A stretch of 64,000 bases of DNA from Eledone cirrhosa. Lineage: Eukaryota. Numbering within the stretch: position 1 is the stretch's first letter; every line of letters starts with the position of its first letter. The stretch lies in NCBI GenBank assembly GCA_964016885.1, contig OZ024750.1:41354001-41418000 (forward strand). The letters are read 5' to 3'. A program made the translations under genes and the position numbers. Shown piece by piece: positions 8,417-43,746 of the stretch. Below the pieces are notes generated by a model, which worked only from the letters and a program-made list of their open reading frames with translations, made no database searches and had not been told where the DNA came from.

Positions 8417-8637
8417 CTCTTTAGCATTTATATTTCTCCATATTTACTATTTTATTTTCACAGTAAAGGATTTACCCCACATAATATCTCACATAATATC
8501 GAATCTATGAGATTTTCATATTATTTATTTTTAGAACAATACTGTAACATAAGTATGAGAGGCCAGTTACAGCTCGTTTGAACACACAAAAAAGGAGAGA
8601 ATTCTTTCCAGATATGGTCAGTTTAAATGCTAAAGGG
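8417..8637 (+). mobile_element. ~220-bp piggyBac-type MITE, empty copy (Tx1 target family)
   Basis: TTAA-CTCTTTAGCATTTA ... TAAATGCTAAAGGG-TTAA; interior matches 20850-21069. Confidence 0.85.
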
Positions 8638-8686
8638 TTAATGTCTGTTTTCCACACGTGCATGAGTTAGATTGAATTGCAATTAA

Positions 8687-8784
8687 CCTTCAGCATGCTG
8701 TTGGTGACAAGAGAGTAATCTCCCCTTAATATATAATACAGTGTCAAGGGGAGCAATTCATGAAAATATTCAGCATGCTAAAGA
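8687..8784. mobile_element. ~100-bp TTAA-flanked MITE with related TIRs
   Basis: TTAA-CCTTCAGCATGCTG ... CAGCATGCTAAAGA-TTAA. Confidence 0.5.
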
Positions 8785-9260
8785 TTAATGTAGTTGTACA
8801 TTGCACTCAGTACATCATCATCATCATCATCATCATCATCATCATTTTACGTCTGCTTTTCCCTGCTAGCACAATAATTCCAAGGTGAATCCATGGCAAC
8901 ACAAGGGACCAGTTGATGTGTGTAATTGACTGAAAAGCCCATTACCTAAAGACTCACACCCTATCATTACATAATTGTAATTGTGAATGGCTTTGAGCCA
9001 ACCCACAGGTGAAACACATGTAATGAAATAAACATATGTTAAACTATCTTTCTCTCATATATATATATATGTGTGAATATATATATATATATATATATGT
9101 GTGTATATATATATATATATATATATATGTGTGTATATATATATATATATATATATATATATATATATATATATATATATATATATATATATGTGTGTGT
9201 ATATATATATATATATATATATGTGTGTATATATATATATATATATATGTGTGTATATAT

Positions 9261-9865
9261 CATCATCATCATCATCATCATCAACGTTTAACGTCCGTGT
9301 TCCACGCTTGCATGGGTTTGGACGGGGGTAGTCCCACTTGAGGCAAGAGTGATTGTCTTGCTCGCATAGGACTGTCTGGCAGGTTTTCTACAGTTGGATG
9401 CCCTTCCTAACACCAACCACATTTACAGTGTGGGTCTGGGAGGTTTTTACCGTGTTGCCTACACGGCCACATTACAGCGTGGACTGTGTGTTTTTTTTTG
9501 TCGTGACACCTACACGATCTCATTTGTTTCGGCCTGGATGGCGCGGCACCAACATAACTTTACATAGAACGGGGTGGTGTGGATGGGGTGGTGGTGGTGG
9601 TGGTGGGACGGGGTGTATTTTGTTAGAGATGCCTACTGGCAAGGCGGGTCTTCTCTGTTACTGAGTACCGCCAAAGGTCTCGGTCCAGTGACATTGTCTT
9701 GGAGAGGTGTAAGTGTGTGAGGTCGGAGTTTATCAGCTCGTCCCAGGTTTTTCTAGGTCTGCCTATTCCGTGGCTACCGTCTATCTTTATTGCCCTGCAC
9801 TTTGTTATACAGCTATCGACTTTCATGCGCATCACGTGTCCATACCAACGTAGCCTTCTCTCGAG
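9261..9865 (-). mobile_element. RTE-clade LINE 3' fragment in (TA)n
   Basis: ORF end [30 protein letters not shown]... and 3'UTR nearly identical to 52354-53225; (TGA)n tail. Confidence 0.92.
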
Positions 9866-41900: not shown

Positions 41901-42429
41901 GATGGACAACTTCCAAAAGTCCCTGGCTTGGCAGTGCTACCGAGGGGCTCTACCCGTTCGAGACAAGCTCCACAGGCATGGGAGCCTGGGTAGAGATCCT
42001 TTGAATAAGATCTGTCCGAGATGCGTGCATGATGACGAAACCGTTGCGCACGCATTCGTACACTGCCCAGGCATTGCTGACCTGTGGGGCTATGTGGAAC
42101 GACTACTGTCGAGGGTGGGACCAATCCGGTTGACCACCGAGTCCATTGTCACGATCAAACCGCCTCCCCCTTTCAAAAACGAAGGAGAGGCGGTTTTTCT
42201 CTGTGTGGTAGCCATGGCTAAAGAAGTTGTATGGTGGACGAGGCTGAAAGGGCTGAGGTCAGACACCTTTCTCTCCGGCCAACAACTGGTCCCCTTTTTC
42301 AAATACCATTTTAAAAGAAGGATCAGAATGGAGAGAGAGGTGCTCTACCCCAGCAAGTTTTATGAAAGGTGGGTGAAAGTAGGGAGAATGGCCAGAGTGA
42401 ATGGGTCTTCTCTCTATATCAGCCTGTAG
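38992..42429 (+). CDS. Tx1 ORF2: apurinic-like endonuclease, reverse transcriptase and C-terminal Cys/His motif (1145 aa)
   Basis: APE motifs LNVRGL, GDWN, YLDR, SDHK; GPGYWKLN linker of L1/Tx1; KSPGLDG, FRPITLLN, DQSKAFDRV, RQGCPLS, YADD; CPRC...ETVAHAFVHC. Confidence 0.95.
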   Translation: MADIRVGCLNVRGLGLSWKQGKLLNDLRSHRMDVMAICESMISSEHQLAPLFDDFEIFASLCQPGGGGGVVVLLRKHLGLAIQKVHLDPEGRLVVLDVGSSESGALRLIAVYAPFWAARPEYFQRLETFLGTSRSLLLVGDWNGILDARWDYVGACANRGGCKSLKRLIGRFDLADRYRLDFPTVPLWTWTNRSGTSRSYLDRVLVRENDRDTFSCPKMFMVDYSDHKLVTCIANLDRTHRQGPGYWKLNLSLPRSKAYSKRISTLVKQSLTGAIVNNRWWSSLKRAIRIESIGFSQELARDRNKTERELVDRVEEAIRSGNVAGVLASRMALDQFFEVKHEGCVVRSKIRALGNEGAKAVSWARVTEAKSGNKSTIRSLKDQDGRVILEPGQMCAAFQRHFARLFERGGAPGETMDFNPYLDGLPRLSDAEAKSCERTISAAEIGAALSQCGKRKSPGLDGLPYELYVAMPDLFSDILEAVYCNWQQNGRIPSSVTKGVVTLVRKDENKGDDISNFRPITLLNTELKILAKVLAKRLALVVGNLVGEAQTCAIPSRSIHDNLHLMRYIIERVGNEPGFGGALINLDQSKAFDRVDHRYLDAVLAAAGFGPVFRGWIAAMHSSNVCSRVKVNGHLSEPFQIMRSIRQGCPLSSLLYVLALEPLLRKLERLQGIPLEPGLQKAASAYADDVTVMVSKTSQIGEIGTLLEEYERFTGAKLNRDKSVGLQLGTWRGKPMPSNDVVGRWTEGPVKLLGVWFGPDLQVEKNWNEVTARVFALTQKWAQCKLSLKGRAEVANTYIASVIYYRLTVVPCPVKRLAKMECALFQFLWNKRTPLVRRSICCQHPSKGGLGMPWLQMRKHALRLRHLQVFLTGQPVWAPFVRRAFPRLVSLTELQSWVKQRPRKVGDWHIECAQALTALWKADPAISGDSTSTFYRGLVRSRYDDALGKALGMEEDELASLFGRTFGPGPMDNFQKSLAWQCYRGALPVRDKLHRHGSLGRDPLNKICPRCVHDDETVAHAFVHCPGIADLWGYVERLLSRVGPIRLTTESIVTIKPPPPFKNEGEAVFLCVVAMAKEVVWWTRLKGLRSDTFLSGQQLVPFFKYHFKRRIRMEREVLYPSKFYERWVKVGRMARVNGSSLYISL

Positions 42430-42665
42430 GTGAAAGAAGAGGAAAAAGAGGAGACGAGGGAAGCACCTACTCTTTGTGCTCCTGAGGAGAAGGGTTACAC
42501 ATTTTTTCCGGGGTGTGTGCGACCCATGTTAATGCCCCCTCCCTATTGAGGACTTCGTTTGTTGTTGTTATTTCATTGTTATATTTTTGTACTCGTTAAT
42601 TATATGTAAACTTCCCCCCTTGTATCTGTCCCTACCTTTTGTGCCCTAGTGGCAAATAAAGAAAC

Positions 42666-43005
42666 CACTCTATATATACTATTGTATTTTCACAGTAAAG
42701 ACTTTACCTCACATAACATCTCACATAACATTTACATTTACTTTATATATACTATTGTATTTTCACAGTAAAGGCTTTACCTCACATAATATCTCACATA
42801 ACATTTACATTACTCTATATATACTATTGTATTTTCACAGTAAAGACTTTACCTCACATAACATCTCACATAACATTTACATTTACTTTATATATACTAT
42901 TGTATTTTCACAGTAAAGGCTTTACCTCACATAATATCTCACATAACATTTACATTACTCTATATATACTATTGTATTTTCATGGTAAAGACTTTACCTC
43001 ACATA
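42666..43005 (+). repeat. MITE-derived 72/73-bp units downstream of copy 3
   Basis: Same unit as 24960-25525. Confidence 0.9.
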
Positions 43006-43746
43006 ATATCAAATCTATGAAAATTTGATATTATTTATTTTGAGAACAATACCTTAACATCAGTATGAGCGGCCGGTTTGAACAGAAAGAGGTGGAAAAA
43101 TTCTGGTTGGATATGGCCAGTTTAAATACATCCCCGCTTTCCTCACATCAGTTGTTATATGGTATAAAGTACAAATTACTTAATATAAAACTGGTTAGAA
43201 GGTTTTTACCCAGTTAAGTACTTAACCAAATATATATATATATGTATGTATAAGTAGGATAACTGAATATGTTTATTGACCTAACTACTTGTCATTCATA
43301 TGCAGCAGAGTCCATATTGTAACAAATATTTTACTAATGTTGATAGGGTTTTTCTTTTCTTTTCATTTTTTTGTAATTTTGTTGTATTTTTTATCGTTTT
43401 TGAATGTTATCTAGAAAAAGATCTAAAAGGAATTAATGAAATATTTTCCATCTTCAGATTCTAATATTGTTTAGAGGTGCTTCATCAAAGAAGTGAAGAC
43501 ATGTTTTGTAAGATACCAGTCAAATATAGTCTTCTGTCATCTTTAAACGACAGTTTCTTCAAATTTTTTTCTTTCCCTTTTCTTTCAAATTTATATTTTG
43601 GATATAACAAAATTATAAAAATAAACTTTTTTCTTGTTTAAATCTGGATTTTTTGGTACATGTAGAAAGTCATTGCGTAATTTTTATAGTTATATTTTAT
43701 TTATTTTGTTTAAAATTTGCTTTTTTTATTTTTACTTTCACTTCAT

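Follow-up and report, generated by a model that had tools for sequence, protein, structure and literature searches.

A LINE, probably of Tx1 type, landed repeatedly at one position within the short internal repeats of an old piggyBac-type MITE in the cephalopod Eledone cirrhosa

The insertion site of the frog element Tx1L is located in the internal tandem repeats of the DNA transposon Tx1D, and insertion of Tx1L makes a target duplication of about 23 bp. It has been described that Xenopus Tx1 long interspersed nuclear elements (LINEs) insert in Tx1D, a nonautonomous piggyBac family (PMC4494074, PMC1950540, PMC1635306, PMC6719617), and that crocodilian Tx1 families target Mariner, Harbinger and long terminal repeat (LTR) elements (PMC4494074). 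In this study, we describe an arrangement of this already known type, Tx1-type LINEs nested in dead DNA transposons of frogs and crocodilians, in a window of 64,000 nt from E. cirrhosa (assembly GCA_964016885.1, contig OZ024750.1, positions 41,354,001 to 41,418,000 of the forward strand), where a LINE has landed repeatedly at one exact position within the short repeats of an older, dead mini-transposon. The window is the whole stretch of DNA that was analysed, and all copy counts and statements of absence given below are confined to it. We favor, with a probability of about 0.7, the reading that a young, sequence-specific L1-group non-LTR retrotransposon targets the internal 60/72-bp unit of an old piggyBac-type miniature inverted-repeat transposable element (MITE) as a safe haven. 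A literature search, weak for subscription journals and for Repbase, had among its listings no report of this LINE or MITE family or of any cephalopod case, and the same holds for the consulted sections of an account of Octopus vulgaris elements (PMC13282606).

The closest case is Xenopus laevis Tx1L in Tx1D (the composite Tx1C), which as described there shares with the present one a LINE of the apurinic/apyrimidinic endonuclease (APE) type and a specific site in a nonautonomous piggyBac element. In contrast to Tx1D, the host here is a MITE of about 220 bp with 60/72-bp units that holds several LINEs per host, the insertions show an apparent loss of 6-8 bp of target, and the host organism is a cephalopod. 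The crocodilian elements Tx1-Mar, SINEU-3 and Tx1-9_AMi are likewise described as targeting old nonautonomous DNA transposons (Mariner-N4, Harbinger) in tandem sequential insertions (PMC4494074). However, those Mariner and Harbinger targets are not described as amplified internal units in the sections of that account consulted, whereas amplified MITE units are the target here, and the tandem SINEU-3 copies sandwich a duplication (PMC4494074), whereas the spacers between the present LINEs are whole units with no duplication. Tandem amplification of a MITE-internal segment, as seen here, has been described for Xenopus Xmix/Xstir, for miDNA4 and for the clam element DTC84, and homogenisation between paralogous arrays has been proposed for such MITEs (PMC6004289, PMC9659126, PMC3879986). 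The ends are different, with Kolobok-type AGGRR termini in Xmix and AA target sites in DTC84 as opposed to CCC and TTAA here (PMC6004289, PMC9659126, PMC3879986), and the consulted parts of the Xmix, miDNA4 and DTC84 accounts describe no site-specific LINE in the arrays, whereas a LINE is present here.

Five LINE copies (L1 to L5) were found, and all five lie inside MITE arrays at the same site; a search of the window with L3 as query returned no further fragment of this LINE family. L1 (25526-31157), L2 (31284-36881) and L3 (37017-42665), on the plus strand, share one array, and L4 (56920-62567) and L5 (62634-64000), on the minus strand, are in another. The four visible 5' junctions all read CACATAACAT followed by CTCG, and all five 3' junctions read GAAAC followed by (C/T)ACT, this 3' junction marking the left border of an imperfect palindrome of 26 nt within the unit. 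Where an empty junction between units has the 6-8 bp TTACAT(T)(T), the loaded ones have the LINE instead, and no short target duplication was found at the LINE junctions. We considered a 65-bp target duplication, by which a single unit would have sufficed as target and the LINE itself would have created the repeat, and rejected it because the units flanking the LINE differ in 4/4 cases, which add up to 10 substitutions and 2 indels as opposed to 1.4 expected from LINE divergence.

The host family is represented by six copies detected with the element at 20850-21069 as query, namely the single-unit MITEs S1 to S3 and the array MITEs A0 to A2. The MITE is about 220 bp long and has a 14-bp terminal inverted repeat (TIR), CCCTTTAGCATTTA, with TTAA outside it. 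The single-unit copies are all on the plus strand: S1 (8417-8637, 221 bp) has TTAA on either side and one mismatch in the left TIR, S2 (20850-21069, 220 bp) has TTAA on either side and perfect TIRs, and S3 (24156-24640) is interrupted by a short interspersed nuclear element (SINE) and has lost part of its right arm in a deletion of approximately 55 bp. Taken together, TIR and TTAA make 18 nt, with a complementarity of 94% in S1 and 100% in S2. TTAA is exact at both ends in two of the four copies with two ends, the other two having CTAA/TTAA and TCAA/TTGA. As piggyBac pattern we used a TTAA site with a TIR of 12-19 bp beginning C[C/A/T][C/A/T][T/G/A] or CC[C/T]T, and the termini of known elements are described as having a TTAA target, a conserved first C in the TIR and a CCCTTT start (PMC5381638, PMC2872659). 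Judged by their sequence, the MITE termini match this pattern in both TTAA and TIR. A Kolobok/T2-MITE identity was rejected, since the termini begin with CCC and do not have the AGGRR (RR) end, a criterion taken from PMC6004289. The right arms of the six copies diverge by 9-23% across 15 pairwise comparisons, which indicates that the MITE insertions are old. Another TTAA-flanked element at 6350-6796 has related termini, an unrelated interior and a SINE interruption.

The three arrays differ in the number of units and in what they carry. A0 (11850-12305, plus strand) is free of LINEs and consists of four 60-bp units and a terminal unit, flanked by TCAA/TTGA. A1 (24949-43127, plus strand) spans 18,179 bp with 17 units and L1 to L3; its left part (24949-25525) holds the left TIR, mismatched at 2/13 positions with TTAA outside, and units 1-8, the spacers between L1 and L2 (31158-31283) and between L2 and L3 (36882-37016) hold two units each, and its right part (42666-43127) holds five units and the right arm, where the TIR ends after AAAT at 43127. 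A2, on the minus strand, holds six units and the right arm at 56422-56919, the arm being truncated at about 56422, where it ends at a (CTT)n tract, has a single unit between L5 and L4 (62568-62633) and runs beyond the window end, with seven units in view and at least two LINEs, one full and one cut by the window end. Units in A1 are 60-73 bp long, or 65 bp where a LINE interrupts them, and a 12-bp sub-repeat, present once or twice, sets the unit size at 60 or 72-73 bp. Where two units meet, the end of the unit is joined to sequence from immediately within the left TIR to give a hybrid junction, and the junction word CATAA[C/T]ATTTA[C/T]ATT occurs 21 times, 21/21 in arrays and never in single-unit copies, with one additional variant junction at 25017 beyond these strict words. 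No remainder of the A1 right TIR was found elsewhere in the window, and its displacement was rejected, since TIR words occur only at 8629, 12297 and 21061 and inside a fragment of another LINE at 52369; a shorter right-TIR word also matches within the first unit of A1. The unit variants CATGG and CACAG were tried as subfamily markers and given little weight, since they look more like alternative CpG decay products of CACGG.

Much of this anatomy had been outlined in the original prediction, and all the coordinates that it cited hold in the sequence: the single-unit MITEs, of which the third turned out to carry the SINE and the arm deletion, the amplified MITE of five units with no LINE, the MITE from 24949 to about 43127 that encloses three LINEs and has an incomplete outer right TIR, the junction confined to tandem units, and the specificity of the LINE for the internal unit. 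Its inventory of loaded MITEs was correct for A1 and overlooked A2 on the minus strand (56422-64000+). It had also arranged the copies as three successive stages of one history, from empty to amplified to loaded; these are separate old copies with arms 9-23% apart, and a succession of steps is not demonstrated by them.

The LINEs are about 5.6 kb in length and are full length in all four copies with both ends visible. In L3 (5649 bp) both open reading frames (ORFs) are open. Its ORF1 (37228-38970, plus strand, 580 aa) has a weak match to the CCHC zinc knuckle (PF00098, E 0.0045) that at 17.5 bits is under the curated cutoff of 20.8, and its ORF2 (38992-42429, plus strand, 1145 aa) has, in this order, an APE endonuclease (PF03372, E 7.5e-12), a reverse transcriptase (PF00078, E 1.7e-27) and a zf-RVT domain (PF13966, E 2.3e-06). 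L1, L2 and L4 carry stops or frameshifts: L1 has a 1-bp gap in ORF1 and a nonsense codon in ORF2, L2, the most diverged copy, has a frameshift and two nonsense codons in ORF2, and L4, the nearest relative of L3, has a nonsense codon in ORF2, though single-base gaps may be sequencing errors. L5 is represented by its 3' 1367 bp only, being cut by the window end. At ORF2 codon 731 (L3 numbering), the same Trp codon has become a stop in L1 and in L2 via different G-to-A changes.

With two ORFs, an N-terminal APE, a central reverse transcriptase, a C-terminal zinc motif and no LTRs, the element has the features of L1-group APE non-LTR retrotransposons, and among PDB entries the eight best matches of the endonuclease, all of them weak (E 4e-05 to 0.009), are to LINE-1 constructs of the endonuclease or of ORF2. 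A CCHC zinc knuckle in ORF1 is a feature of the Tx1 clade, and so is preference for a target sequence, which the present LINE shows in 5/5 copies. The sole match named by organism among the 120 reverse transcriptase relatives listed was from the cuttlefish Acanthosepion pharaonis, with 53% identity. In a tree of 31 reverse transcriptase regions (29 chosen from the 209 matches listed plus two window sequences), which contains no Tx1 reference (Tx1L, Keno or Kibi), ORF2 falls with the cuttlefish sequence in a clade of ten, with support of 99/99, apart from the plant sequences. The two results point to a probable cephalopod host, whose SINEs and microsatellites may be octopus-like. The LINE is probably of Tx1 type; this is given as a likely label only, because neither the homologue searches nor the ESM Atlas had a protein named Tx1 among the matches listed. 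O. vulgaris is described as having 13 recently active L1-Tx1 families, with a mean of approximately 5.4 kb per insertion as computed from the table given there (PMC13282606), and the likeness of these to the present LINE is in size only.

The distances among the copies bear on how the LINEs came to lie where they do. Pairwise differences range from 0.27 to 1.1%, and the closest relative of L3 is L4 in the other MITE (15/5648, 0.27%), with its neighbours within A1 at 0.51% and 1.0%. Between A1 and A2 the arms show 5/50 differences (about 10%), and the units that flank L3 differ from those that flank L4 at 3 and 2 of 65 positions, so that A2 as a copy of A1 was rejected, arms and flanking units being too different. 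Because the hosts are about 10% apart while L3 and L4 are only 0.27% apart, the LINEs appear to have arrived separately. L1 to L4 have 12, 39, 6 and 9 private substitutions, respectively, and the 12 of L1 versus the 39 of L2 fit a single tandem duplication poorly (p = 0.0002). Moreover, 27/61 private coding changes are synonymous as opposed to 26-29% expected without selection (p = 0.002-0.008), which suggests that the copies derive from different source lineages under selection. The simplest reading of these distances would be separate retrotranspositions from related active sources into long-diverged hosts.

As a mechanism, we propose that the APE endonuclease would nick the bottom strand at TTACAT(T)^ACT, where reverse transcription would be primed, and that the 5' end would attach a few bases further upstream, perhaps with the help of about 25 nt of unit sequence on the RNA, through which it would anneal. 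A possible model for the fixed 5' junction is R2Bm, for which a small target deletion and full-length insertion aided by about 27 nt of upstream target on the RNA have been described (PMC6895275). However, R2 has a restriction-like endonuclease and a 28S ribosomal DNA target (PMC6895275), whereas the present element is of APE type and uses a MITE unit. Each LINE would thus have come by its own retrotransposition and neighbouring units would have been filled one by one, amplification would count mainly as a supply of many fresh sites, and perhaps also of upstream homology for 5' joining, and the loaded MITEs seen here would be passive, immobile hosts. The same reading also leans on precedent, that is, on Tx1 in Tx1D, on the independent insertion of SINEU-3 in an old Mariner, on tandem insertions, and on target truncations, which are described for SINEU-2 and as an outcome for Tx1-mobilised elements (PMC4494074).

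Several points weigh against this reading. The sample consists of five LINE copies from one window, and the 5' side of L5 lies beyond it. The nick position is one that we infer, and the loss of 6-8 bp is judged from empty array junctions rather than from an orthologous empty site. Gene conversion inside the arrays could have wiped out a long target duplication. The window holds no 5'-truncated copy, which is the usual proof of independent insertion. Finally, 9 substitutions and a 15-bp gap are common to L1 and L2 within the first 2.1 kb, together with a variant in the unit upstream, as opposed to only 1 shared site over the remaining 3.5 kb; recombination or conversion seems to have played some part, because the sharing is concentrated in the 5' 2.1 kb, and an old segment duplication or gene conversion could equally yield it.

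The alternative that survives best is the claim of the original prediction that amplification creates the landing site, in the sense that tandem duplication makes a target absent from single-unit MITEs and only amplified MITEs can be loaded. The restriction of the junction word to arrays stands, and in addition the four visible 5' junctions are of the array type TAACAT and not of the terminal type TAATAT, and the first unit of A1, which is old and diverged (8/53 differences), already ends in a junction. If 5' joining requires upstream homology, as described for R2Bm (PMC6895275), only junctions would supply it in place. However, site creation itself was not shown. Sequence that starts 10 bp upstream of the 3' junction and extends over the whole unit recurs beside the left TIR, with no mutation at 11858 and 20858, and CATTTACATT-ACTCT, the sequence around the 3' junction, adjoins the left TIR in four MITE copies; the C of TAACAT could come from the LINE itself. 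Nor is the contrast in occupancy significant, with 5/27 internal sites as opposed to 0/4 TIR-adjacent ones (0/5 with S3; Fisher p = 1.0 or 0.56) in a count that takes in L5 although its 5' side is unseen. Moreover, a SINE occupies the same site in the single-unit S3: it is 5'-truncated (24179-24503, plus strand), lies at the TIR-adjacent copy of the LINE target, and its (GAT)n tail ends directly before TACTCT, the position of the 3' junction of L2. Among the 16 other SINE tails of the same type that were listed, none has MITE sequence after it, so this position may be due to chance or to microhomology of the tail. We regard a need for amplification as plausible, with the odds somewhat against it.

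A further alternative concerns the units themselves and reverses the order of cause: the LINE would spread units, since its transcripts would start and end in flanking units and insertion would deliver LINE and units to other MITEs by homology, later recombination between units would delete the LINE and leave LINE-free arrays like that at 11850-12305, and amplification would in part be brought about by the LINE. A0, A1 and A2 have the same majority 44-bp unit core (0/44 differences), from which the single-unit copies differ at 6-9/44 positions, and exact shared runs between arrays reach 59, 69 and 102 bp, as opposed to 16-36 bp in the 12 pairs that involve a single-unit copy, despite arms of the three array hosts that differ by 10-14%. 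Simulated amplification confined to each locus reached such runs in 0-10 of 600 trials per setting over nine settings. It thus seems that units moved between loci after the MITEs had diverged. Of 29 units, only the two that precede L1 and L2 carry a variant (25497 and 31255) located 24 bp ahead of the 5' junction, and these two LINEs have a 5' haplotype in common. However, judged from the sequences, ectopic gene conversion would be the ordinary explanation of unit likeness across loci and accounts for the homogeneity without the LINE, transport by the LINE being the bolder one, and the L1/L2 variant may be a local duplication. Private differences are seen in the units that directly follow the five LINEs, one of them only 4 bp from the end of L5, so that the 3' flank looks target-derived. 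The figures for arm divergence come from 50-103 aligned bases, the simulation was a simple one, and the homogeneity test was chosen after the data had been seen. We therefore consider the spread of units by the LINE unlikely. In a fuller form of the same idea, which we judge speculative and rather unlikely, LINE and MITE would be a self-feeding pair: LINE RNA would carry unit sequence, join at homologous units and export fresh, uniform units to old MITEs, so that the LINE would renew and multiply its own target after the MITE had become immobile, and arrays like A0 would be what lost LINEs had left behind, or would result from the same movement of units.

Unequal crossing-over of a block made up of LINE and unit, or else an error of assembly, is a very unlikely source of the tandem LINEs. 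Identical junctions, copies that are all full length and the 5' variants common to L1 and L2 would be expected from either, but adjacent LINEs are not each other's closest relatives, the private changes are unequal and biased to synonymous sites, and the three visible spacers differ in length (126, 135 and 66 bp) and in unit type. Simple tandem or assembly duplication of the LINE was rejected on the same distances, unequal private changes and synonymous bias.

The least credible reading is that loaded MITEs are mobilised as composites by a piggyBac transposase with the LINEs as hitchhikers, a possibility that the original prediction had raised; the termini fit piggyBac (PMC5381638, PMC2872659), four full-length LINEs out of four with two ends are what copying at the DNA level would give, and O. 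vulgaris is described as having recently active piggyBac families (PMC13282606), but the right TIR is incomplete in both of the loaded copies, piggyBac excision is described as abolished when the terminal G is lost (PMC5381638), the MITE family looks old, and A1 and A2 are not copies of each other, their arms differing at 5/50 positions as opposed to 15/5648 between L3 and L4. The CAC start of the left TIR of A1 was rejected as a fatal lesion, since positions 2-3 vary among active piggyBacs (PMC5381638). Transposase families had no match among 72 window reading frames of at least 70 aa (LINEs and low-complexity frames excluded), and the window yielded no autonomous piggyBac partner that shares the termini. 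Hitchhiking was also raised, tested and rejected for the crocodilian SINEU-3 (PMC4494074). We keep composite mobility at a low figure rather than at nil because other genomic loci could differ.

Other features of the window include a 1.67-kb inverted repeat, 98% identical, at 1003-2671, with mirrored GIY-YIG-like frames of 152 aa (1519-1974, minus strand, and 1708-2163, plus strand) just under the Pfam cutoff; it may be either a Penelope-like element or a hairpin produced in assembly. A different LINE family is represented by fragments at 12691-14115 and about 52368-52824; its reverse transcriptase is followed by a PHD-finger match, and it contains a 12-bp word that matches the MITE right TIR. 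Further tandem arrays lie at 4767-5389 (63 bp x10), 15387-19487 (35 bp x117), 22280-23534 (51 bp x24), 48576-49201 (64 bp x10) and 55059-55664 (101 bp x6), some of which seem to be amplified SINE pieces. Rfam gave no match in the window.

An intact and very young copy, a short, defined target and full-length insertion in 4/4 cases make this LINE a workable substrate for the study of APE-LINE specificity and 5' joining. If the self-feeding view were true, the retrotransposon would itself be maintaining the satellite on which it lands, and if the uniformity of the units were caused by the LINE, retrotransposition would be linked to the birth and homogenisation of satellite DNA. Moreover, a mollusc case in a piggyBac-type MITE would allow one to ask whether such a choice of target is ancient or has evolved multiple times.

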